In this document: positions 7,555 through 19,719 of the stretch, in pieces
Layout: each line of letters opens with the position of its first letter
How positions within the stretch are numbered: the stretch's first letter is position 1
Position numbers and translations under genes: made by a program
DNA from: a virus
Taxonomy: Duplodnaviria; Heunggongvirae; Uroviricota; Caudoviricetes
Reading direction: 5' to 3' (one strand)
Virus record (IMG/VR): IMGVR_UViG_2541047905_000010
DNA: 37,360 nucleotides
The notes under the pieces: model-generated
The model's database searches: none
Told to the model about the DNA's origin: nothing
What the model saw: the letters and a program-made list of their open reading frames with translations, nothing else

Positions 7555-7935
7555 TCAGTCAGCCCAACCTGATTTCGAGTTTATTTGGGTTTCTGACATT
7601 GTGTATTTCTTAATCGTGTCATCGTTAAAAAGAATAGTAAGTTCTTTTTTCGTACCGTTCGTTCCATTATGGAATAATCCATAGAATGGAATAAAAGTGG
7701 TGCCATTAACTTTTACTTTTGCAAAGGCGTACTTCCAGATCTCGTTTCCACTGTCAGTATATGAAACAGCATCAGGAGAACCAAAGTAAGATTTAACCTC
7801 ATTCTTGGTTGTTTTACCTTCCTGAAGTTTAGACTGGACACTAATTTCAGTTTCATTTTTGAGTTGCTGGTTGCCTGAAGAAGCACACCCAGCCAATACA
7901 GATGCCATCATGGCAGCGATTAGGATTTTTCTCAT
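7555..7935 (-). CDS. Lipoprotein (signal peptide with LAGC lipobox), BamE/OmlA-like fold suspected; lysogenic-conversion moron
   Basis: MRKILIAAMMASVLAGCASS...; AT-rich codon usage; sits directly downstream of the repressor gene on the same strand and has its own terminator. Confidence 0.8.
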   Translation of the reverse strand: MRKILIAAMMASVLAGCASSGNQQLKNETEISVQSKLQEGKTTKNEVKSYFGSPDAVSYTDSGNEIWKYAFAKVKVNGTTFIPFYGLFHNGTNGTKKELTILFNDDTIKKYTMSETQINSKSGWAD

Positions 7936-8164
7936 TTTATGTTTCCATTCATTATAATCAGAAACATCTTAACATAATGATTCGAAATAAAAACCGCTAC
8001 GAGATAGGGGGACATTTTGCTGACAGTAGCAACAAATCTCAGCTAACAACGAGAATATTTACTGAAATATGCAAACAGATTTGGCGTTCTTATAGAGAAT
8101 TTAGTGCAATATCTAATCCGAGTGGTATAAACCTTAACCTTCGCTCCCTTAAGTCGTAGATAAA

Positions 8165-8854
8165 TTAACCATGCTTCCTGTACGTCTGCGGCATGCTTCC
8201 AATGACCTTACCGAATATGAACACCCGGTTCATCTCGTCTTTCTCGATCGGGTCCCACGGCGAGTAGCTCTTGTTATCAGAGATAACCAGCAGCTTATCC
8301 TTCATCATTTGAAGACGTTTTACATGGGCAGTGTCGTCGTACAGAAACGCATAGATGCCATCACCGTCGAAAGATTTAACAGTGATATCAACGAACAGCA
8401 GGTCACCTGGTTCGATCGTCCCTGACATGCTGTCACCTCGCACGTTAATGATGCGGATATTTTCCGCCTTCCTGCCATCGAACATGTGACGAGCATCGTC
8501 AAACGAGTACTCAACCGAGCGTAGAACTTCTACAAACTCACGGTTGATTACACCTGGCCCGGCACTGACTTCTATATCAAGAACGTCAATTTTGAAGTAT
8601 TTGGAATGGCTGACAGTTGATTGTATTGGTTGCACTGTACTGTCTGACATATTTCCAACGCCAGAAGATAACCATTCTGCGCGCACACCCAAAGCGTTCG
8701 CGATCTCCACGATTTTAGTTGTTTGGTTAGCTTTCCCTGTTTCGATTTTCTGAATAGCAGCCTGGCTAACCCCGACCAAATCCCCAAGCGCCTTTTGTGT
8801 AAGGCCTCGCGCTAATCTGGCTTCTTTAAGTCTTTCTGAGAGTGTTGTTTTCAT
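8165..8854 (-). CDS. Prophage repressor, HTH (XRE) + S24 LexA-like peptidase domain (CI-type, not lambda cI)
   Basis: 229 aa; N-terminal LTQKALGDLVGVSQAAIQKIETGK helix-turn-helix; C-terminal Ser/Lys autocleavage module (GDSMSGT...KRL); divergent from the cro-like gene. Confidence 0.9.
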   Translation of the reverse strand: MKTTLSERLKEARLARGLTQKALGDLVGVSQAAIQKIETGKANQTTKIVEIANALGVRAEWLSSGVGNMSDSTVQPIQSTVSHSKYFKIDVLDIEVSAGPGVINREFVEVLRSVEYSFDDARHMFDGRKAENIRIINVRGDSMSGTIEPGDLLFVDITVKSFDGDGIYAFLYDDTAHVKRLQMMKDKLLVISDNKSYSPWDPIEKDEMNRVFIFGKVIGSMPQTYRKHG

Positions 8855-9258: not shown

Positions 9259-9798
9259 ATGCAACCACTTACATACCAACAGACTAGCGGATTTATTCCG
9301 ACTGCGGTGATAAATCGTTCTCAAACAAAACAAGCTCCAGGCCACGAAAAAATCCGTGATGCCGTCCGCGCCTGGTCGGCTGTAGATAATCAGGATGTCG
9401 TTGCCGCACTCATTGTGAATGAGTATCGGGAGCAGGGCGACGGCACCATCGATTTCCCTGATGATGTCAGCCGTGCACGCCAGAAGCTGTTCCGCTTCCT
9501 CGATAACAAATTCGATTCTGAAAAATACCGAAATAACGTGCGTGAACTGACCCCGGCAATTCTGGCGGTACTACCGCTGGAATATCGCGGTTACCTGGTT
9601 GAGCAGGATAGCTTCATGACTCGGTTGGCTGAAATGGAAAAGGAACTCAGTGAGGCAAAACAGGCTGTCATTCTCAACGCACCACGCCACCAGAAACTGA
9701 AGGAAATGAGTGAAGGTATTGTGTCGATGTTTCGTGTGGACCCGGATCTGGCTGGTCCATTAATGGCGATGGTGACCACCATGCTGGGGGCAATATGA
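9259..9798 (+). CDS. YdaT-family protein (proposed CII functional analogue)
   Basis: 179 aa; occupies the cII slot; motif LTPAILAVLPLEYRGYL resembles the YdaT family as recalled. Confidence 0.65.
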   Translation: MQPLTYQQTSGFIPTAVINRSQTKQAPGHEKIRDAVRAWSAVDNQDVVAALIVNEYREQGDGTIDFPDDVSRARQKLFRFLDNKFDSEKYRNNVRELTPAILAVLPLEYRGYLVEQDSFMTRLAEMEKELSEAKQAVILNAPRHQKLKEMSEGIVSMFRVDPDLAGPLMAMVTTMLGAI

Positions 9799-9884
9799 CA
9801 GGTTCAGAAATGGCGAAAGTCGGTCTGCGGGAACAGAACCGACTTTCAGGTGCAAATCGTAACACACTCATTGCGGGAGGAATT

Positions 9885-10814
9885 ATGGCAAACACTGCTG
9901 AGATATTCAATTTTCCAGTGCCGGATGCGGCACAAAAGGAGCCGCGCGTGGCAGATCTCGATGATGGTTATACGCGCATTGCAAATGAGTTGCTGGAAGC
10001 TGTGATGCTGGCCGGATTAACACAGCACCAGCTTCTGGTCTTCCTGGCTGTCATGCGCAAAACATATGGCTTTAATAAAAAACTGGATTGGGTGAGCAAC
10101 GAGCAACTTTCCGAGTTGACCGGGATATTGCCGCACAAGTGTTCTGCTGCAAAAAGCGTTCTGGTAAAGCGTGGGATTCTTATTCAGAGCGGGCGGAATA
10201 TCGGCATTAATAATGTGGTCAGTGAATGGTCAACATTACCCGAATCAGGTAAGAAAAATAAAGTTTACCTGAAAGAGGTAAATTTACCTGAATCAGGTAA
10301 GAAAAGTTTACCCAAATCAGGTAAAGGCGTTTACCCGAATCAGGTAAACACAAAAGACAAACTAACAAAAGACAATATAAAACCTTTTTCGTCCGAGAAT
10401 TCTGGCGAATCCTCTGACCAACCAGAAAACGATCTTCCTGTGGAGAAACCAGATGCTGCAATTCAGAGCGGCAGCAGGTGGGGGACAGCAGAAGACCTGA
10501 CCGCCGCAGAGTGGATGTTTGACATGGTGAAGACCATCGCGCCATCAGCCAGAAAACCGAATTTTGCAGGGTGGGCTAACGATATCCGCCTGATGCGTGA
10601 ACGTGACGGACGTAACCACCGCGACATGTGCGTGCTGTTCCGCTGGGCATGCCAGGACAACTTCTGGTCCGGTAACGTGCTAAGTCCGGCCAAACTCCGC
10701 GACAAGTGGACCCAACTCGAAATCAACCGTAACAAGCAACAGGCTGGCGTGACAGCCGGAAAATCAAAACTCGACCTGACAAACACTGACTGGATTTATG
10801 GGGTGGATTTATGA
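9885..10814 (+). CDS. O: Replication initiator O (lambda O family); track ORF starts at 9795
   Basis: N-terminal region VADLDDGYTRIANELLEA...RKTYGFNK matches lambda O; ori iterons embedded in the coding sequence; GGAGG ribosome-binding site before ATG 9885. Confidence 0.9.
   Translation: MANTAEIFNFPVPDAAQKEPRVADLDDGYTRIANELLEAVMLAGLTQHQLLVFLAVMRKTYGFNKKLDWVSNEQLSELTGILPHKCSAAKSVLVKRGILIQSGRNIGINNVVSEWSTLPESGKKNKVYLKEVNLPESGKKSLPKSGKGVYPNQVNTKDKLTKDNIKPFSSENSGESSDQPENDLPVEKPDAAIQSGSRWGTAEDLTAAEWMFDMVKTIAPSARKPNFAGWANDIRLMRERDGRNHRDMCVLFRWACQDNFWSGNVLSPAKLRDKWTQLEINRNKQQAGVTAGKSKLDLTNTDWIYGVDL
10236..10385. repeat. Origin of replication: four to five ~19-bp iterons (tttacccgaatcaggtaag-type) plus A-rich tract
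   Basis: Direct repeats at about 10236-10253, 10283-10301, 10307-10325, 10329-10347 with a degenerate copy at 10264-10282, then cacaaaagacaaactaacaaaagacaatataaaa. Confidence 0.85.
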
Positions 10815-11512
10815 AAAACATCGCCGCACAGATGGTTAACTTTGACCGTGAGCAGATGCGCCGGATCGCCAACAACATGCCGGAACAGTACGACGAAAAG
10901 CCGCAGGTACAGCAGGTAGCGCGGATCATCAACGGTGTGTTCAGCCAGTTACTGGCAACTTTCCCGGCGAGCCTGGCTAACCGGGACCAGAACGAACTGA
11001 ACGAAATCCGCCGCCAGTGGGTTCTGGCTTTCCGGGAAAACGGGATCACCACAATGGAACAGGTTAACGCAGGAATGCGCGTAGCCCGTCGGCAGAATCG
11101 ACCATTCCTGCCATCACCCGGGCAGTTTGTCGCCTGGTGCCGGGAAGAAGCATCCGTTACCGCCGGACTGCCAAACGCCAGCGAGCTGGTTGATATGGTT
11201 TACGAGTATTGCCGGAAGCGTGGCCTGTATCCGGACGCAGAGTCTTATCCATGGAAATCAAACGCGCACTACTGGTTGGTTACCAACCTGTACCAGAACA
11301 TGCGGGCCAATGCGCTGACTGACGCGGAATTACGGCGTAAAGCTGCCGATGAGCTGACCTGTATGACCGCGCGAATTAACCGTGGTGAGGCGATACCTGA
11401 ACCAGTAAAACAACTTCCTGTCATGGGCGGTAGGCCTCTAAATCGTGCACAGGCTCTGGCGAAGATCGCAGAAATCAAAGCGAAGTTCGGACTGAAAGGA
11501 GCAACTGTATGA
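10811..11512 (+). CDS. P: Replication protein P (DnaB helicase loader, 233 aa)
   Basis: 233-aa ORF matching lambda P from memory (MKNIAAQMVNFDREQMRRIANNMPEQYDEKPQVQQVA...). Confidence 0.96.
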   Translation: MKNIAAQMVNFDREQMRRIANNMPEQYDEKPQVQQVARIINGVFSQLLATFPASLANRDQNELNEIRRQWVLAFRENGITTMEQVNAGMRVARRQNRPFLPSPGQFVAWCREEASVTAGLPNASELVDMVYEYCRKRGLYPDAESYPWKSNAHYWLVTNLYQNMRANALTDAELRRKAADELTCMTARINRGEAIPEPVKQLPVMGGRPLNRAQALAKIAEIKAKFGLKGATV

Positions 11513-11682
11513 CGGGCAAAGAGGCAATTATTCATTATCTGGAGACGCACAAGAGCTTCTGTGCGCCGGACGTTGCTGCGACAACAGGTGTGACATTAAC
11601 CAGCATAAATCAGGCTGCGGCAAAAATGGCGCGGGCAGGAATCCTGGTCATTGATGGTAAGGTCTGGCGAACGTTTGTTTAA
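11509..11682 (+). CDS. ren: Ren-like protein, C-terminally truncated (57 aa)
   Basis: MTGKEAIIHYLETHKSFCAPDVAATTGVTLTSINQAAAKMARAGILVIDGKVWRTFV matches the N-terminal ~55 residues of lambda Ren as recalled; start overlaps the P stop (ATGA). Confidence 0.7.
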   Translation: MTGKEAIIHYLETHKSFCAPDVAATTGVTLTSINQAAAKMARAGILVIDGKVWRTFV

Positions 11683-11828
11683 CGGTTAGCTACTCAGGAT
11701 GATAGGGCGGGGCAAGTGAGTATGAAGCGGATTTTCAGGAATGCCATCAGAGTTTGGAAATAAAGTGGGTTTTCTAGTGGCAAGAGACTTGATAATATTT
11801 AGTTCTTTAAATCCAAGGAGATAGGGTT

Positions 11829-12323
11829 ATGAGAAAATTTATTATAGCCTTTGTCATAAGTGCCTCGTTTACTGCAAATGCTGGTGTAGAGAAGTTAGGG
11901 TCGTGGATAACAAAGTCTGAGATAAATAAAATGACTGACCAGACTGACTTTGTGGCTCTTAATTTATCACCAGATTCATATAACAAAGCAGGTACTGATC
12001 GTGCAACTTCACTGGTGTTGCGTTGTAGTGATAACAAAACAGATGCCTATTTATCATTCAATGATTATATGGGTTCGGACAACCCAAGAATTACAGTGCG
12101 GTTAGATGGCGGAAAGCCGGTCAAGAGTGCTTGGGGAGGTGGGGAAGGCGGTGATTCTGCATTTGCTCCACAACCAATACAATTTATAAAGACCTTGGCT
12201 AAGCATAAAAAAGCTATTTTTGGGTTTGAACCTTATGGATCAACTATGCAAGTAGTTGAGTTTGACTTGTCTGAGATTGATAAGGTTGTGGAAAAAATTT
12301 CACAGTCTTGCAATTGGAAATGA
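11829..12323 (+). CDS. Secreted/periplasmic hypothetical protein (Sec signal peptide, two Cys); AT-rich moron
   Basis: 164 aa; MRKFIIAFVISASFTANA signal peptide; AAGGAGA ribosome-binding site; followed by an intrinsic terminator; lower GC than the flanks. Confidence 0.7.
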   Translation: MRKFIIAFVISASFTANAGVEKLGSWITKSEINKMTDQTDFVALNLSPDSYNKAGTDRATSLVLRCSDNKTDAYLSFNDYMGSDNPRITVRLDGGKPVKSAWGGGEGGDSAFAPQPIQFIKTLAKHKKAIFGFEPYGSTMQVVEFDLSEIDKVVEKISQSCNWK

Positions 12324-12340
12324 CAAAAAAATTTCATATG

Positions 12341-12368
12341 AACCCAGTTGGCGCTGGGTTTTTTATTT
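12341..12368 (+). terminator. Intrinsic terminator after the secreted-protein gene
   Basis: aacccag-ttggcg-ctgggtt hairpin followed by ttttatttc. Confidence 0.65.
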
Positions 12369-13096
12369 CAGTAGCCAATAATGCATTCAAAATCTCTTAC
12401 TTGAGAAACGGCCTATTTGAGATTTCAGTCGTGGCAGGATGATCAGTTGATTCGAGTATTGACGCATTTGCGTTCGGAGCGATTACAGTAGATTGTAAAT
12501 AATAATGAGAAACACATAGCCACATAGCCACCCCGTGGTATTGAAACCATATAATGTTGGATTTGAAAACAGATCTTTTCCCATGTATTAATAACTACAT
12601 CCCCGCGAGTGATTCAAAAAGGAGGGCCCAATTTTGTCCGAGTTTTTGTATTCCCCCGCATGCCGCTGCGGAGCACTACATCTGAGTGTCTGACTAGGGG
12701 ATAAAATTAGACTGGATAGTGAGAAGAAAGTGGCGCGCTAGGCTGTGCCGAGTGCTACCAGTACACCTTGGGGGTGTGCAGCTTTCGCCGAGACTGTAGT
12801 GGGTATCGGTTAATGCACGAAAAACCGAGAGGTCAGACAACCAATTTGCCGTAGGATTGTTTCCGGTGCGATACCGGTCTACTAACTGAAAGCAATGCGA
12901 AAAAGCATAAACTCGGTCCTTCAGTCGCCCTACACACTATTTACTAAGAAGGGCTGAAGCATGGATACAATTATTACATGGATGGGAGATCGTCTGTTGG
13001 GGGGGACACAAAAATCCGATCTGCAGCAGATGGCGATCACTGGATTAACTTCCGCGATTTGTTCAACAATTTTGTACACTGAAAAATTAAAACATG

Positions 13097-13105
13097 GTGA
13101 GCCTA
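13097..13105. repeat. IS1 target-site duplication, left copy (gtgagccta)
   Basis: Identical 9-mer directly flanks both IS1 ends. Confidence 0.9.
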
Positions 13106-13120
13106 GGTAATGACTCCAAC

Positions 13121-13624
13121 TTATTGATAGTGTTTTATGTTCAGATAATGCCCGATGACTTTGTCATGCAGCTCCACCGATTTTGAGAACGACAGCGACT
13201 TCCGTCCCAGCCGTGCCAGGTGCTGCCTCAGATTCAGGTTATGCCGCTCAATTCGCTGCGTATATCGCTTGCTGATTACGTGCAGCTTTCCCTTCAGGCG
13301 GGATTCATACAGCGGCCAGCCATCCGTCATCCATATCACCACGTCAAAGGGTGACAGCAGGCTCATAAGACGCCCCAGCGTCGCCATAGTGCGTTCACCG
13401 AATACGTGCGCAACAACCGTCTTCCGGAGCCTGTCATACGCGTAAAACAGCCAGCGCTGGCGCGATTTAGCCCCGACATAGCCCCACTGTTCGTCCATTT
13501 CCGCGCAGACGATGACGTCACTGCCCGGCTGTATGCGCGAGGTTACCGACTGCGGCCTGAGTTTTTTAAGTGACGTAAAATCGTGTTGAGGCCAACGCCC
13601 ATAATGCGGGCTGTTGCCCGGCAT
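13121..13624 (-). CDS. insB: IS1 transposase InsB (expressed as InsAB' by -1 frameshift)
   Basis: 167-aa ORF matching IS1 InsB from memory ([58 protein letters not shown]...). Confidence 0.93.
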
Positions 13625-13818
13625 CCAACGCCATTCATGGCCATATCAATGATTTTCTGGTGCGTACCGGGTTGAGAAGCGGTGTAAGTGAACTGCAGTT
13701 GCCATGTTTTACGGCAGTGAGAGCAGAGATAGCGCTGATGTCCGGCGGTGCTTTTGCCGTTACGCACCACCCCGTCAGTAGCTGAACAGGAGGGACAGCT
13801 GATAGAAACAGAAGCCAC
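13543..13818 (-). CDS. insA: IS1 InsA (transposition inhibitor / N-terminal part of InsAB')
   Basis: 91-aa [45 protein letters not shown]... Confidence 0.93.
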
Positions 13819-13873
13819 TGGAGCACCTCAAAAACACCATCATACACTAAATCAGTAAGTTGGCAGCATCACC

Positions 13874-13882
13874 GTGAGCCTA
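13874..13882. repeat. IS1 target-site duplication, right copy (gtgagccta)
   Basis: Identical to 13097-13105. Confidence 0.9.
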
Positions 13883-14144
13883 TTAACCCAAACGAAGAAG
13901 AAAAACTTTATAGGCTTTGGTATGAAGGAAACGCTTGAAAGAATAAAGCACAATTAAAACCTTTGATTTGCGATAATCAACTTGCCATAATTAAGTAATC
14001 GGAGCCTGAACAACTCCGGTGACTTCTGCGCTAAACGGGGACGTTTATGCGCACATACAATCCAAACTATCTTCTCCTTTCACAGATGCAGAAATGCACC
14101 TGCAATTCTTTGCATCTAGCGTTTGACCTCTGTGGAGGTGAAGC

Positions 14145-14600
14145 GTGAACCTCCCACAAGATGGCATCAAATTGCATCGCGGTAACTTCACCGCTATCGG
14201 TCAGCAGATCCAGCCTTATCTGGAAGACGGCAAATGCTTTCGCATGGTGCTTAAACCGTGGCGAGAGAGACGCAGTCTTTCCCAGAATGCACTCAGCCAC
14301 ATGTGGTACAGCGAAATCAGTGAATACCTCATCAGCAGGGGGAAATCGTTCGCTACCGCAGCATGGGTAAAAGATGCTCTCAAACACACATACCTCGGTT
14401 ATGAAACCAAGGACCTGGTTGATGTCGTAACCGGCGAAATCACTACTATCCAGTCGTTACGCCATACCTCCGATCTTGATACCGGAGAGATGTATGTCTT
14501 CCTGTGTAAGGTTGAAGCCTGGGCGATGAATATTGGCTGCCACCTGACTATTCCGCAGAGCTGCGAGTTCCAGCTGCTGCGCGACAAGCAGGAGGCGTAA
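14145..14600 (+). CDS. ninB: NinB-family recombination protein (DLP12 YbcN-like)
   Basis: 151 aa with GTG start; [20 protein letters not shown] motif typical of the NinB family; first gene of the nin module. Confidence 0.75.
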
Positions 14601-16039: not shown

Positions 16040-16207
16040 ATTATTAAAAATGGGGCGTTGAGACGCCCCCAAAAATAAAGGGTAATATATAACAGAAGGT
16101 TTATATAGTTAGAAGCAAGGTTGTGCTTCTAAAGGAAGTGGCTTGAGGGAGCCACTTATATGTTGGGGAGGCAACGCCTCCCGCAACATATCTTTTTCGT
16201 AATCAGA
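16040..16207 (-). ncRNA. Candidate small RNA / structured 3'UTR downstream of the porin gene (IpeX-like position)
   Basis: Minus-strand RNA folds into consecutive hairpins (GCGGGAGGCGUUGCCUCCC; GUGGCUCCCUCAAGCCAC; GAAGCACAACCUUGCUUC) ending in GGGGCGUCUCAACGCCCC + AUUUUUAAUAAUUUUU. Confidence 0.3.
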
Positions 16208-17290
16208 TTAGAACTGGTAAACCAGACCTACAGCGACGATGTCGTCGGTATCAATATCAGCTGTTTTGGTAAACTTACTATCGTCAATTAAGTTGATTTT
16301 GTAATCAACAAAAGTGGACATGTTTTTATTAAAGTAGTAAGTAGCACCGACATCGACATACTTGACTAAGTCTCGGTCACCATGAACACCAAGGTCTTTA
16401 CCTTTTGACTGAAGGTAAGCAACAGATGGGCGCAGACCGAAGTCAAACTGATATTGTGCTACTGCTTCAAAGTTTTGTGCTTTGTTTGCAATATGGTTAT
16501 TACCAAAAACGGTCATATTCTGAGTTTCAGAATATGTGGTAGCCAGATAGATATTGTTCGCATCATATTTCAGGCCTGCAGCCCATACTTCCGCATTTTT
16601 GCCGGAGGCATTGAATTTGCTCTTACCATAGGCGACCTGACCGTCAGTGCGATCTGATTTAGCATAGGTTGCACCCACGCCGAATCCTTCATACTCATAA
16701 GTAGTGGAGAAACCGAAACCATCACCATTGGCTTCAGTTACGTCAGTGCGGTCATTTTTACCCTGATACTGAGCAGCAAAGTTCAGGCCATCGACCAGAC
16801 CAAAGAAGTCGTTGTTACGATAAGTTGCAACACCAGTAGTGCGACCAGTCATGAACACATCTGTTTGGGTCCAGGTATCACCACCGAATTCTGGCAGAAC
16901 GTCAGTCCACGCACCGATGTCGTATGCTACACCGTAGTTACGGCCGTAATCGATTGAGCCGTAATCACCAAATTTCAGGCCTGCAAATGCAAGACGGGTT
17001 TTGTCTTTGGAAGAACCTTGAGATTCAGCGCGGTTGCCTTTGAATTCATATTCCCACTGACCGAAACCAGTCAGTTGATCGTTGATTTGGGTTTCACCTT
17101 TGAAGCCAAGACGGGCATAAGTAGTATCACCATCATCTGCATCATTAGAGGAGAAGTAGTGCTTAGCATTAACTTTCCCGTACAGATCCAGCTTGTTACT
17201 GTCTTTATTATAAATTTCAGCTGCCTGAGCAGACATCGCCATCAGTACTGATGCAGCTACAGCAGAAATTGCCACTGTTAATTTTTTCAT
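16208..17290 (-). CDS. nmpC: Outer-membrane general porin, NmpC/Lc (OmpC/OmpF/PhoE family), intact; lysogenic-conversion moron
   Basis: 360 aa from [23 protein letters not shown] (signal peptide) to C-terminal ...VAVGLVYQF; track ORF adds 20 spurious N-terminal codons. Confidence 0.95.
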
Positions 17291-17717
17291 CGTGAGCCCT
17301 TTTTTTGAACTATTATTAAAAAATGATGTCACTGCGCGATAAATATTCATCTAATCAATGTGATTATTTCAAGATGTAAGTTTTGGTTTCTCGTTTGATT
17401 TGTGAAGTAGATCTCTATTTTTATCTGAACTTTTTTCTATCGAATCCTATTCATGGCTCTTGGCTGAATAAAAATAAATCTATTAGCCAATTTATATTAA
17501 TGGCTGTTATTTATAAGTGCTCTATAATTTGAAGGTTCAATTTAAATCGGCTAAAAATAACGCTGGAAATTATTTGTTGGTTATTTGTTGAGATTTGCTT
17601 ATGTATTTGTAGTGGTGTTTTCAATACTCGGTAGCATTCTCGCAAATATCATTTAGTGGTTTACGTACGTAAAAAATTGGTTATGCTGTTAAGAGTGGTT
17701 ACTTCGTCACACAGCTT

Positions 17718-19033: not shown

Positions 19034-19064
19034 AGCTGCCCATATCGATGGGCAACTCATGCAA

Positions 19065-19358
19065 TTATTGTGAGCAATACACACGCGCTTCCAGCGGAGT
19101 ATAAATGCCTAAAGTAATAAAACCGAGAAATCCATTTACGAATGTTTGCTGGGTTTCTGTTTTAACAACATTTTCTGCGCCGCCACAAATTTTGGCTGCA
19201 TCAACAGTTTTCTCCTGTCCAATTCCCGAAACGAAGAAATGATGGGTGATGGTTTCCTTTGGTGTTACTGCTGTCGGTTTGTTTCCAACAGTAAACGTCT
19301 GTTGAGCACATCCTGTAATAAGCATTGCCAGAGCGGCAGAAAACAACATTTTTTTCAT
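19065..19358 (-). CDS. bor: Bor lipoprotein (serum-resistance factor), 97 aa
   Basis: MKKMLFSAALAMLITGCAQQTFTV...EARVYCSQ matches lambda Bor from memory; track ORF has a 16-codon spurious extension. Confidence 0.92.
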   Translation of the reverse strand: MKKMLFSAALAMLITGCAQQTFTVGNKPTAVTPKETITHHFFVSGIGQEKTVDAAKICGGAENVVKTETQQTFVNGFLGFITLGIYTPLEARVYCSQ

Positions 19359-19719
19359 CTTATTATCCTGCATTGTTAAAAACGGCAGAATCCTATGTGA
19401 CAACAATTAAACGATAGTTAAATGGATTGATGAAAATTAAAACTATATAGGTGGATGCTCAGCCTATTGGAGGAGGGGGGGGCACTCAGAATCCTGTGGA
19501 ATGAAATAAACCGCTCTATCTGTCCATTACCCTTTTAGCTGCGCTGTATCGTCGCCGTATTCCCGCATTAACCATGACCGTAGCCCGACGGGGAATTCCT
19601 TCTGCGTGAGTGTGCGGGAATAATCAAAAACGATGCACACCGGGTTTTACTGTGCTGACAGACGCAGGGTTACCCTCATAGTCGCTTTTCCGGTGCGATG
19701 GTGGAAGAAACCGGGATGT

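Follow-up and report, generated by a model that had tools for sequence, protein, structure and literature searches.

The region between ren and ninB of the lambda-like prophage studied here very probably contains, at positions 12599-12929 of the plus strand, the core of a large structured non-coding RNA gene, as judged by comparing related copies. The window (i.e., the whole stretch of 37,360 nucleotides of the IMG/VR record IMGVR_UViG_2541047905_000010) had been surveyed in an earlier note, which described 11683-14144 as a single AT-rich island of accessory DNA with a gene for a secreted protein, a stretch at 12330-12960 free of open reading frames, and a small ORF interrupted by IS1. The RNA gene lies in the ORF-free stretch, and the reading that we favour, with a little better than even confidence, is that it is a self-contained gene, carried as a moron in the nin region of Enterobacterales lambda-like prophages, whose product would act in trans. 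The remaining parts of the island are ordinary, i.e., a TagO-like protein, a gene remnant and a small ORF broken by IS1. The features are as follows:

11509-11682, plus strand: truncated ren, 57 codons up to a stop (ORF list)
11829-12323, plus strand: gene for a 164-residue signal-peptide protein, VasI/TagO family, phrog_1848 (Pfam, PHROG and fold)
12340-12368, plus strand: intrinsic terminator of the TagO-like gene, GAACCCAG-TTGG-CGCTGGGTT (12340-12361) followed by a T-run
12405-12491, plus strand: decayed 3' end resembling the C-terminal part of Ant, 28 codons and a stop (alignment to a protein of phage Turner)
12563-12592, plus strand: putative sigma-70 promoter of the RNA, with -35 TTGAAA at 12563-12568 and -10 TATTAA/ATTAAT at 12586-12592
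12599-12929, plus strand: predicted structured non-coding RNA core, 331 nt (alignments A2 and A6, RNAalifold, pair counts and covariance model R1)
12689-12694, plus strand: 5' strand of a predicted inter-domain pseudoknot, UCUGAC, pairing with 12832-12837
12832-12837, plus strand: 3' strand of the predicted pseudoknot, GUCAGA, within the most conserved block, GAGAGGUCAGACAACCAA
12919-12959, plus strand: hairpin between the 3' end of the RNA and the sequence preceding F0, CUUCAGUCGCCCU pairing with AGGGCUGAAG just before the start codon
12961-13105, plus strand: 5' part of the small accessory ORF F0, 48 codons (66-residue allele; phrog_8527/12412)
13106-13873, minus strand: IS1, 768 bp, insA/insB, with inverted repeats GGTAATGACTCC... 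and ...GGCAGCATCACC
13097-13105 and 13874-13882: 9-bp target duplication GTGAGCCTA flanking IS1
13883-13938, plus strand: 3' part of the interrupted F0, 18 codons and a stop

Structure and conservation of the RNA core

As the earlier note had stated, 12330-12960 contains no ORF of 60 or more residues on either strand (the longest reaches 48), and its suggestion that this stretch merited a search for RNA was borne out by the conserved structured RNA found there. The core comprises domain I (12599-12702) and domain II (12710-12926), with 17 helices, and its conservation is sharply bounded along the sequence. Among 20 divergent lineages, 98.0% of cells in the core are paired, in contrast with 30-47% in controls with slid partners, and double compensatory changes occur at 22 pairs as against 2-5 in these controls. 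An alignment of 13 lineages made with MAFFT gave 98.2% of paired cells (33-47% with slid partners) and 17 pairs with double changes (2-4 in the controls), a value reached by none of 500 shuffles; the copies were gathered through exact conserved words, and their alignment spans only about 70-100% identity. In strength, this covariation support equals that for accepted RNA classes. When both strands were compared, 98.2% of cells paired on the plus strand versus 86.6% on the minus strand, with 133 G-U cells; because G-U pairs are tolerated only on the plus strand, the RNA is assigned to it.

Most helices of domain II are backed by compensatory changes; helices P1, P2 and P4 of domain I almost never vary, and are therefore without covariation support. 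Long unpaired blocks are invariant; the helices vary while the loops and junctions are frozen. The two strands of the predicted pseudoknot are paired in 100% of cells and are invariant except in locus L136, where a C-G pair is replaced by U-A. The GC-rich hairpin ccggtgcgataccgg singled out at 12862-12876 in the earlier note is real and caps a helix for which relatives show covariation; of the gccgag repeat, both copies are present and lie inside RNA helices, and the motif has no meaning of its own. A search for further tertiary pairs by naive column covariation gave a signal swamped by shared ancestry. The folding energy of the single sequence did not differ from that of shuffled sequences on either strand (z ~ -0.2), and this measure is therefore uninformative here.

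It is hardly credible that the element is functionless, i.e., either what is left of a decayed gene or a site acting at the DNA level (in recombination or replication) that merely looks structured. Decay, as contemplated in the earlier note, does account for 12405-12491, a true degraded gene end within the ORF-free stretch, and several lineages have a stop-free minus-strand frame of 109 codons over the element. Nevertheless, for 12599-12929 this explanation is contradicted by the compensatory double changes at 22 pairs, and it is also at odds with the tolerance of G-U pairs on one strand only, with a conservation that exceeds that of the flanking protein genes, and with the lack of codon periodicity (variable columns fall in the three codon phases as 44/41/39, p=0.86). 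The note's other proviso, that 12330-12960 might have no conserved structure, clearly does not hold. No frame across the element is open in every variant, and two copies carry 1-nt indels; the 109-codon minus-strand frame, present in 7 lineages, broken in the others and devoid of periodicity, was rejected as a gene.

It is also very unlikely, although slightly less so, that the element is a small mRNA in which domain I encodes a 19-residue peptide, MSEFLYSPACRCGALHLSV, and the rest forms a structured 3' region. The frame extends from a UUG at 12634 to the UGA at 12691-12693 and is preceded by a perfect Shine-Dalgarno sequence, AAGGAGG at 12619-12625; it is open in all variants, a 7-nt complementarity to the 3' end of 16S rRNA is kept by differing sequences (AAGGAGG, or GGAGGUG in loci L007, L010 and L128), and a 2-nt deletion in these three loci preserves the spacing of 6-8 nt. 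However, 8 of the 13 changes observed in the frame are non-synonymous, the third codon positions are no freer to vary than the others, helix P5 shows a compensatory change inside the frame, the start codon would be UUG, and domain II (217 nt, with the strongest covariation) is not accounted for.

The Rfam scan that the earlier note had recommended for 12330-12960 returned no catalogued family. Rfam 15 (4227 covariance models) gave no match in the whole window at gathering thresholds and none at E<=10 in 11600-14200 or 12560-12965; with the copy at L007 only three unrelated chance matches were obtained (E 3-8). A tRNA/tmRNA scan found none, and the literature gave no match to the topic or to sequence strings, as far as this could be checked. 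A set of 10,006 unnamed candidate RNAs was predicted from IMG/VR (PMC10690425), and the RNA may be among them. Within the Rfam, RefSeq and literature consulted, and as far as we could check, the RNA has not been described previously.

Covariance model R1 scored 340-396 bits at more than 60 loci. The RNA is present in 159 of 5426 complete E. coli genomes, as a single copy for which RefSeq annotates nothing in any of them, and in 4 of 50,697 phage records; its hosts include Escherichia, Klebsiella, Raoultella, Enterobacter, Kosakonia, Atlantibacter/Cronobacter and Obesumbacterium. It is always found in the nin region, between ren or the replication genes and ninB, most often with one of five unrelated small accessory genes immediately after it, and is absent from related prophages with the same backbone (L125; K-12-like content upstream in Turner). 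A second conserved word retrieved from viral contigs the same loci and two others lacking the 18-mer used, one of which (L070) was a chance match on inspection. Matches to this 18-mer in species-representative genomes belong to unrelated phyla, with weak covariance-model scores (8.4 bits), and were likewise discarded as chance.

The modules around the RNA gene

What had been regarded as one island is a mosaic of at least three modules that are shuffled independently, since 11683-12402 and 12403-13105 are separable and occur apart in phages IdasGreatGrand and Turner. Its character as non-lambda accessory DNA was confirmed, and its uniform AT-richness was not: the GC content is 0.36-0.45 across 11700-12600 and 0.48-0.52 across 12600-13050, the part that holds the RNA. 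The idea that the ren-ninB junction is a moron slot agrees with the different cargo found at the same place in related phages, e.g., a gene for EmrE/QacE and a YbcK-like recombinase in phage Turner. The stretch 12330-12960 is itself composite, formed by a terminator, an 87-bp gene remnant, a promoter and the RNA gene. The region corresponds in part to a known annotated gene set, given that RefSeq annotates both protein genes (as TagO and as a hypothetical protein). No island protein matched the PADLOC defence models, and the prophage of the window seems to be without an N gene.

The truncation of ren is corroborated by RefSeq, which in identical prophages marks 11509-11777 as a frameshifted ren pseudogene. 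The 164-residue protein next to it carries, as proposed, a Sec-type signal peptide (MRKFIIAFVISASFTANA) at its N-terminus, and its gene has its own intrinsic terminator downstream. It scores just above the gathering threshold of PF11319 (27.5 bits, cutoff 26.5) and matches phrog_1848 with E=1e-70; its homologs, found throughout the Enterobacterales, are named TagO, most of them with a precomputed PF11319 assignment. Structure prediction, which the earlier note had called for, gave a beta-rich AF2 model (pLDDT 80.9) whose best Foldseek match is 3dtd, IalB (E=1e-4, TM 0.55-0.6). From its sequence, the protein is assigned to the VasI/TagO family (PF11319) with a predicted IalB-like beta fold. It thus resembles VasI/TagO and the Bartonella protein IalB in Pfam score, homolog names and predicted fold; unlike VasI/TagO, its gene is part of a prophage, flanked by ren and the nin genes, and no type VI secretion genes are close to it.

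A recombination junction at approximately 12402 separates this module from the Ant-like remnant, whose translation, ETAYLRFQSWQDDQLIRVLTHLRSERLQ followed by a stop, aligns with the end of a 107-residue protein of phage Turner (phrog_7640; Ant-like phrog_245/377). At the other end, the claim that IS1 splits a small ORF starting at 12961 is correct, given that excision of IS1 together with one copy of the duplication restores exactly the 66-residue ORF of VR50 and N10. The insertion shows the characteristics of IS1 in length (768 bp), terminal inverted repeats, insA/insB and 9-bp duplication, and F0 is, to judge from the interrupted frame, inactivated in the window.

Transcription signals, downstream genes and possible roles

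The putative promoter of the RNA has a spacer of 17-18 nt, and its form in other lineages is TTGAAA-17-TTTAAT. The -35 and -10 blocks keep their positions in divergent lineages, in contrast to the variable spacer and flanks, and the distance from these promoter-like boxes to the conserved 5' end of the RNA is constant; a simple consensus promoter scanner made no call at 12563-12592. In most lineages outside E. coli an intrinsic terminator begins 7-9 nt past the core; most relatives have a terminator that the RNA in the window lacks. The hairpin at 12919-12959 overlaps, with its 5' arm, the 3' strand of helix P6; it is not followed by a U-tract, and it is poorly conserved in other lineages with the same downstream ORF. 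With regard to the promoter and terminator of their own that define morons, the TagO-like gene has a clear terminator and the RNA has conserved promoter-like boxes.

In the reading that we favour, the RNA would not depend on the phage early operon for its transcription, which would start at a promoter of its own and probably proceed also in lysogens, would fold into a compact tertiary structure, and would act as RNA itself, binding a protein or ligand rather than engaging in short antisense pairing. The pattern of variable helices with frozen loops and junctions, which is that of ribonucleoprotein RNAs, ribozymes and aptamers, points to such action beyond antisense pairing. Its role could lie in phage-host or phage-phage conflict, or in the control of neighbouring cargo. 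Independence from its neighbours is suggested by the varied upstream genes (TagO-like, Ant-like, MazG/EaA-like and others), the five unrelated families found downstream, locus L010, with the RNA and a terminator and no cargo gene, and the homologs of cargo genes that occur without the RNA. We give even chances to an action mainly in trans, as a stand-alone RNA, and consider an action on or with the gene just downstream to be a tentative possibility, clearly below even. The linkage between RNA and cargo is nonetheless persistent, co-oriented and maintained even where the identity between cargo proteins has dropped to 57% (F29) or 69% (F0), and therefore a functional tie to the neighbour is favoured over a purely stand-alone RNA. 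Since the E. coli lineage of the window has no terminator, the RNA would there also be the 5' leader of F0.

A less probable, although tenable, explanation is that the RNA is a cis-regulatory leader, a sensor domain that controls the adjacent accessory gene through terminator read-through where the cargo is F29 or F34, or through accessibility of the start region where it is F0, as in the window. In all but one or two of approximately 20 lineages the RNA lies at most 55 nt upstream of a co-oriented small cargo gene, which leaves no space for a separate cargo promoter, and F0 has no good Shine-Dalgarno sequence in any lineage. The expression platform tracks the cargo perfectly (30 variants with F0 and no terminator, 14 with F29 or F34 and a terminator), and nearly identical RNAs precede different cargo (L023 versus L035), as in aptamer classes. 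In E. coli, the hairpin preceding the start codon and helix P6 share sequence (in the 3' strand of P6), and the alternative folds are nearly iso-energetic (-109.0 versus -110.6 kcal/mol). However, the terminators, given their distance from the core, do not overlap it and show no evident anti-terminator pairing; in the Turner lineage the E. coli hairpin carries a mismatch that goes uncompensated, and the F0 lineages of Enterobacter and Obesumbacterium have only a weak form of it; L010 has no cargo gene; F29 homologs with at most 53% identity occupy the same slot without the RNA, as searched with default covariance-model filters; and 331 nt far exceeds the size of known leaders.

The cargo proteins also bear on an explanation that we regard as improbable, an RNA-plus-effector conflict module in which an RNA antitoxin or sensor accompanies a swappable toxic protein, with the layout of type III toxin-antitoxin systems (ToxIN), and an excess of RNA would restrain or trigger, when a phage infects, an effector of membrane or nuclease type. 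The F29 and F34 lineages do show the order promoter, RNA, terminator and effector; F29 has two transmembrane helices, and one of its homologs (41% identity) is named 'SMODS and SLOG-associating 2TM effector' in UniRef; the R-x4-H motif of F34 (RLRHNLLH) recalls HEPN RNases; the N-terminus of the fifth cargo (MKNIIIDSNAW) is PIN-like by eye only; and the linkage with the RNA is kept over substantial divergence. Nevertheless, the F0, F29, F34, F62 and L103 cargo proteins had no match in Pfam, NCBIfam, PHROG-function or PADLOC, and none resembles ToxN; F29 matched no SLATT profile (Pfam, 81 members; NCBIfam; PADLOC), so that a SLATT, HEPN or PIN identity is confirmed by no profile library. The F29 model (transmembrane helix, four-helix bundle, transmembrane helix) retrieved only generic sensor-domain bundles, the RNA lacks tandem repeats, a single RNA is unlikely to be recognised by five unrelated proteins, and cargo homologs exist without it. 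F0 and F29 were also considered as homologs and rejected, as they share no BLASTP similarity. Equally improbable is the bolder version, in which the RNA would be the sensing or controlling part of a new prophage conflict cassette, with neither reverse transcriptase nor repeats, that gates the expression or activity of interchangeable small effectors (the 2TM protein, the HEPN-like protein, F0 and others) upon infection; should this be true, retrons or type III toxin-antitoxin systems would have in it an RNA-first analogue.

Few genomes have been mined for non-coding RNAs as thoroughly as those of E. coli and Klebsiella, and despite this the 331-nt RNA is unannotated in all its RefSeq carriers and belongs to no Rfam family. 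Large ornate bacterial RNAs are few (RNase P, tmRNA, OLE, GOLLD, ROOL and the IscB/TnpB guide RNAs), and each of them has opened new biology or still poses a puzzle. Phages Turner and IdasGreatGrand are cultured isolates of the tractable lambdoid type, and therefore the function of the RNA is directly testable. If it controls or partners the variable genes behind it, it would represent a new RNA-based module of temperate-phage accessory hotspots.

Comparison with known systems

Several E. coli prophage sRNAs, such as DicF, IpeX, AgvB/AsxR, the Pas sRNAs and svsR, are, like the RNA reported here, non-coding accessory cargo of lambdoid prophages. These are simple hairpins of 50-170 nt that act by base pairing, in contrast with the 331 nt, 17 helices and invariant loops of this RNA, and none of their Rfam models matches it; identity with svsR was rejected, which has 77 nt and is located at the 3' end of cI (PMC12803456).

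Riboswitches and structured leaders are similar in that a conserved domain precedes varied genes, with two downstream arrangements (a terminator or a start-region hairpin). The RNA differs from them in being much larger, in having its terminators outside the conserved domain, in one cargo-free copy and in lacking a candidate ligand. The type III systems ToxIN, CptIN and TenpIN share with most relatives of the RNA the succession of promoter, RNA, intrinsic terminator and promoterless small protein gene; this full order is present in the F29 and F34 lineages, whereas the window and other F0 lineages lack the terminator. They also differ in that the RNA forms one complex structure, with no repeat detected by TRF in 12560-12960, and is followed by five unrelated families, none resembling ToxN/AbiQ-type endoribonucleases.

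The put elements of HK022, approximately 70 nt long with two stem-loops and located just downstream of PL and PR, direct RNA-based processive antitermination. Put RNAs and the RNA are structured phage RNAs of the early-right transcription unit, upstream of terminators, and an N-less prophage, as that of the window seems to be, is a shared trait; in contrast, the RNA has 331 nt and its own putative promoter, and is located about 2.8 kb downstream of cro.

GOLLD and ROOL are large ornate non-coding RNAs often found in prophages of Firmicutes and other bacteria. Their Rfam models match the RNA neither in sequence nor in structure, and it is about half their size, has Enterobacterales hosts and occupies a fixed position in the nin region, not beside tRNA genes. 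Nevertheless, it resembles them in being longer than 300 nt, multi-helix, strongly conserved, without known function, and borne by temperate phages with its own (here predicted) transcription signals.

The accessory island between ren and ninB

The window holds a complete DLP12-like lambdoid prophage of E. coli, in which int, xis, exo-bet-gam, kil, cI, cro, a YdaT-like gene, O, P and ren are followed by the accessory island (11683-14144), and this in turn by ybcN/ninB, ninE, ybcO, rusA, ylcG, quuD, a porin gene, lysis genes and terminase genes. The prophages of E. coli strains VR50 and N10 are nearly identical to it and have no IS1. All features that the earlier note had described were found where it had placed them: ren is truncated by a stop after 57 codons and is a pseudogene according to RefSeq, and 12330-12960 (about 630 bp) contains no ORF of 60 aa or more on either strand. 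The description of the island as AT-rich applies to 11700-12600 (GC 0.36-0.45) and does not hold for 12600-13050 (GC 0.48-0.52).

Genes and elements in and around the island
9795-10814: O
10811-11512: P
11509-11682: truncated ren
11829-12323: gene for a 164-aa secreted protein
12340-12361 plus T-run: intrinsic terminator of the 164-aa gene
12405-12491: remnant of an Ant-like (anti-repressor-like) gene
12599-12929 (+): RNA core
12961 onwards: small ORF (F0), split by IS1
13106-13873: IS1 (768 bp), with 9-bp direct repeats GTGAGCCTA
14145-14600: ybcN/ninB

The 164-aa protein carries a Sec-type signal peptide at its N-terminus, as had been noticed, and its gene is independently terminated. It narrowly passes the Pfam VasI model (PF11319; 27.5 bits, cutoff 26.5) and aligns end to end with phrog_1848; the name type VI secretion system-associated protein TagO is given to homologs of about 165 aa in Salmonella, Enterobacter, Citrobacter, Pantoea, Serratia and Klebsiella. 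Searches for a PDB sequence relative, and for NCBIfam and PADLOC matches, gave none. Its AlphaFold2 model is beta-rich (pLDDT 80.9), and the only significant match to a solved structure is Bartonella invasion-associated protein B (3dtd; E=1e-4, TM 0.55-0.6). The protein is a member of the known TagO/VasI family, carried as a classical protein moron. Comparison with N10 pointed to other classical morons in the prophage, i.e., an OmpC/NmpC-like porin gene at ~16200-17300 (-) and the iss/bor serum-resistance lipoprotein gene at ~19060-19360 (-).

Judged by BLAST comparison with phage genomes, the island is a mosaic, split at ~12402. The part with the 164-aa gene (11683-12402) is found in phage IdasGreatGrand ~1.8 kb from the remaining part, and in phage Turner the genes that precede 12403-13105 are those for EmrE/QacE, a YbcK-like recombinase and a 107-aa Ant-like protein (phrog_7640; Ant-like phrog_245/377). 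The in-frame translation of 12405-12491, ETAYLRFQSWQDDQLIRVLTHLRSERLQ*, equals the final 28 codons of the Turner gene for the Ant-like protein, and the segment is therefore a truncated remnant from recombination. As for the small ORF, excision in silico of IS1 and one repeat gave exactly the 66-aa protein annotated in VR50. Nothing about the protein-coding part of the island is out of the ordinary: it comprises a moron of the TagO/VasI family, the remnant of a gene, and a small hypothetical ORF that IS1 has inactivated.

Other details of the prophage were also recorded. A short tandem repeat (CACATAGC x 2.4; one unit fewer in Turner) occupies 12513-12531, after the gene remnant and before the putative promoter of the RNA. 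The prophage has no recognisable gene for an N antiterminator, and the first leftward gene past cI (8165-8854) encodes a 126-aa BamE/SmpA-like lipoprotein (7555-7935 (-), 7936-8164).

The structured RNA of the ORF-free stretch

Comparison of 12599-12934 with an unannotated stretch of the Klebsiella phage Kp4856-1 showed 79% identity, with invariant runs of 20-50 bases alternating with variable runs, a pattern that is not protein-like. Copies were collected by exact match to an 18-mer, GAGAGGTCAGACAACCAA, taken from the block with the strongest conservation. This bait gave 65 loci in viral contigs and 32 in metagenomes, and a second conserved word recovered the same viral set. A covariance model made from 13 divergent copies gave 340-396 bits on full-length copies, and exactly one match in the window, 12599-12929 (+).

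RNAalifold, applied to a plain MAFFT alignment, predicted 17 helices with 88 pairs in all, which fall into two domains (RNA positions 1-104 and 112-328). In this alignment 98.2% of the cells (sequence x pair) are canonical, versus 33-47% when the 3' partners were slid by 1-3 columns; both sides are changed in 17 pairs, versus 2-4 in the slid controls, and none of 500 shuffles reached the observed values. With more divergent copies added (20 sequences), 98.0% of the cells were paired and the double-change pairs rose to 22, versus 2-5. Covariation lies mostly in domain II (helices P7, P8, P11 and P16), and the hairpin at 12862-12876 singled out in the earlier note forms the tip of P16. Domain I is nearly invariant in sequence, and for this reason its helices are only predicted. 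A pseudoknot between the domains is also predicted, since the invariant blocks UCUGAC (12689-12694) and GUCAGA (12832-12837) are able to pair; in L136, the most divergent copy, its terminal C-G is changed to U-A, which would break the competing local hairpin.

The strand and the non-coding nature of the element were likewise evident. There are 133 G-U cells, and the same structure on the minus strand retains just 86.6% of the pairs. Variable columns are spread evenly over the codon phases (44/41/39; p=0.86), no reading frame is open across all variants, and single-base indels occur in two copies. It is thus firmly shown that 12599-12929 is a conserved, highly structured, non-coding RNA element of the + strand, with gene-like boundaries. 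The minor reading that the stretch has no function at all is excluded for 12599-12929 by the covariation.

Another minor reading is that domain I contains a short ORF. Conserved within the RNA is a Shine-Dalgarno sequence that is perfect, AAGGAGG (three divergent lineages have GGAGGUG instead); it is followed after 6-8 nt by a UUG, from which a 19-codon frame runs to UGA (window 12619-12693 (+)); the frame is open in every variant, and its substitutions have no bias to synonymous sites.

Of 5426 complete E. coli genomes, 159 contain the RNA, each as a single copy, and in none of the 159 does a RefSeq annotation lie beneath it. Four of 50,697 phage records contain it; among species-representative genomes it was not found, apart from chance word matches. 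Judging from neighbouring proteins, the hosts of the divergent copies are Klebsiella pneumoniae, K. oxytoca, Raoultella, the Enterobacter cloacae complex, Kosakonia, Atlantibacter/Cronobacter and Obesumbacterium (Hafniaceae). The location is always the nin region of a lambdoid prophage, in the direction of the early-right operon. The 18-mer was also seen in several Saccharibacteria genomes (L073, L079-L081, L087, L091, L109); given that the RNA model reaches just 8.4 bits over a 100-nt stretch in these contigs, the matches probably belong to a conserved unrelated gene.

Three naturally damaged copies are useful as natural deletion variants: domain I is replaced in L017 (14193-14452), the last ~25 nt are removed by an IS21-like element in L062 (3066-3395), and the -35 region is replaced in L058 (7296-7626).

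Predicted transcription signals, cargo genes and possible function

Conservation begins at a -35-like sequence, followed by 17-18 variable bases, and the invariant 5' end of the RNA, AUCCCCGCGAG, starts 6-7 nt past a putative -10. The conserved 3' limit is CAGUCGCC (12929).

Putative promoter elements
12563-12568 (+): TTGAAA, -35-like
12586-12592 (+): TATTAA/ATTAAT, putative -10, AT-rich; TTTAAT in most other lineages

This putative promoter lies just 3' of a strong terminator (12340-12368), which early-right transcripts would have to traverse on their way to Q. A block common to the E. coli and L029-type lineages, ACCATAT-r-w-TGTTG (12546-12560 (+)), is found 5' of the -35 and might serve as a UP element or as the site of a regulator; for the perfect TATAAT at 12550-12555 there is no usable -35.

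Most copies of the Klebsiella, Raoultella, Enterobacter, Kosakonia and Atlantibacter type have a canonical intrinsic terminator 7-9 nt past the core, with stems that differ in sequence, e.g., ACCGCC-UUGU-GGCGGU-AUUUUUUU and GCCACC-GAAA-GGUGGU-UUUUU. No terminator follows the core in the window or in any other copy followed by F0. The genes 5' of the RNA are varied (TagO-like, Ant-like, MazG/EaA-like and others). Downstream, unrelated small accessory (cargo) proteins are encoded in different lineages, as surveyed in 56 distinct variants.

Sequences downstream of the RNA core, terminator after the core, and number of variants (seven lie outside the table: a decayed F29 copy, L088, and six contigs that are too short)
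F0 (66 or 118 aa); no terminator; 30
F29 (178 aa, two transmembrane helices); terminator; 10 (plus 1 without T-run)
F34 (176-183 aa); terminator; 4
F62 (95 aa); no terminator; 1
177-aa protein (L103); no terminator; 1
No cargo, backbone DUF1367 gene next (L010); terminator; 1
RNA 3' end cut by an IS (L062); no terminator; 1

The RNA-cargo linkage is persistent but not obligatory. The model still detects the RNA 5' of cargo homologs whose protein identity has fallen to 57% (F29) or 69% (F0); F29 homologs at 53%, 41% and 34% identity occupy the same slot without the RNA, one of the three belonging to an E. coli prophage that shares the backbone and the TagO-like gene, and remote F0 homologs are located elsewhere in their phages. 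In L125 (3164-4546; E. coli GCA_001617175.1), which shares backbone and TagO-like gene with the window prophage, the RNA-F0 cassette is replaced by 108-aa and 51-aa ORFs and a 181-aa F29-like protein with two transmembrane helices; the RNA model finds no match in the 370-bp gene-free gap after its TagO-like gene. Nearly identical RNAs precede F0 in L023 and F29 in L035, which indicates that recombination swaps the cargo exactly at the 3' boundary of the RNA.

In F0-type copies pairing is possible between the final 13 nt of the core and the 10 nt preceding the F0 start (window 12919-12931 with 12950-12959). The hairpin so formed shares sequence with the 3' strand of P6, the domain-closing helix, and the states with P6 enforced or with the hairpin are predicted to be near iso-energetic; among the F0 lineages, those of Turner, Enterobacter and Obesumbacterium have a weak or mismatched hairpin. 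The two alternative downstream arrangements (terminator, or hairpin before F0), the absence of a Shine-Dalgarno sequence before F0, and the close, persistent adjacency to promoterless cargo genes favour the main rival explanation, a cis-regulatory leader of the downstream cargo gene, which we consider somewhat unlikely. The reading rated most likely, with about an even chance of being correct, is a stand-alone RNA moron acting in trans, because the terminators lie apart from the core, one copy has no cargo, the cargo families are unrelated and able to exist without the RNA, and, to our knowledge, all known bacterial RNAs of comparable size and style act in trans. Wherever a terminator is present, the RNA would be transcribed from its own promoter as a discrete molecule of some 340-370 nt, and in E. 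coli it may double as leader of F0.

None of the cargo proteins matched Pfam, NCBIfam or PADLOC models. The F29 model (pLDDT 89.8) has a four-helix bundle placed between two transmembrane helices, and its structural matches are generic sensor-domain bundles only; the UniRef label of one homolog, 'SMODS and SLOG-associating 2TM effector', was not confirmed by profile models. Nuclease-toxin-like motifs were noticed in two cargo proteins, RLRHNLLH, reminiscent of the HEPN R-x4-H, in Kp4856-1 (L003 3385-3936), and a PIN-like N-terminal IIIDSNAW in L103 (5704-6237), and no profile library confirmed them.

The most exciting reading, a ToxIN-like module of RNA plus effector, is in our view improbable; the searches above gave no positive sign of toxins among the cargo proteins.

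Comparison with known RNAs

The helices of the RNA drift, and its long loops and junctions are frozen across genera. Such a combination is the signature of RNAs that act by way of tertiary structure and bound partners, i.e., ribonucleoprotein RNAs, ribozymes and aptamers; it is not that of antisense sRNAs or simple attenuators. Rfam 15 has no family matching the RNA, even at E<=10, and a full-text literature search by topic and sequence strings did not find it described. The prophage sRNA svsR is a different element, of 77 nt, at the end of cI. The RNA could be among the 10,006 unnamed candidates predicted from IMG/VR (PMC10690425).

In layout the locus resembles those of type III toxin-antitoxin systems and genes under riboswitch control. 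Unlike a type III antitoxin, the RNA has no tandem repeats (12560-12960), and its cargo proteins match no ToxN-type endoribonuclease; as to a riboswitch-like platform, the terminators of other lineages lie clear of the core, and the hairpin before F0 overlaps P6. Closest in kind are GOLLD and ROOL, large phage-associated RNAs for which self-assembly has been seen and which have no homology to the one in the window. On comparative sequence evidence, the existence of the RNA as a conserved structured element is well supported, and what the ORF-free stretch holds appears to be a member of a large structured RNA class, carried by prophages of E. coli and related bacteria, that had not been described.
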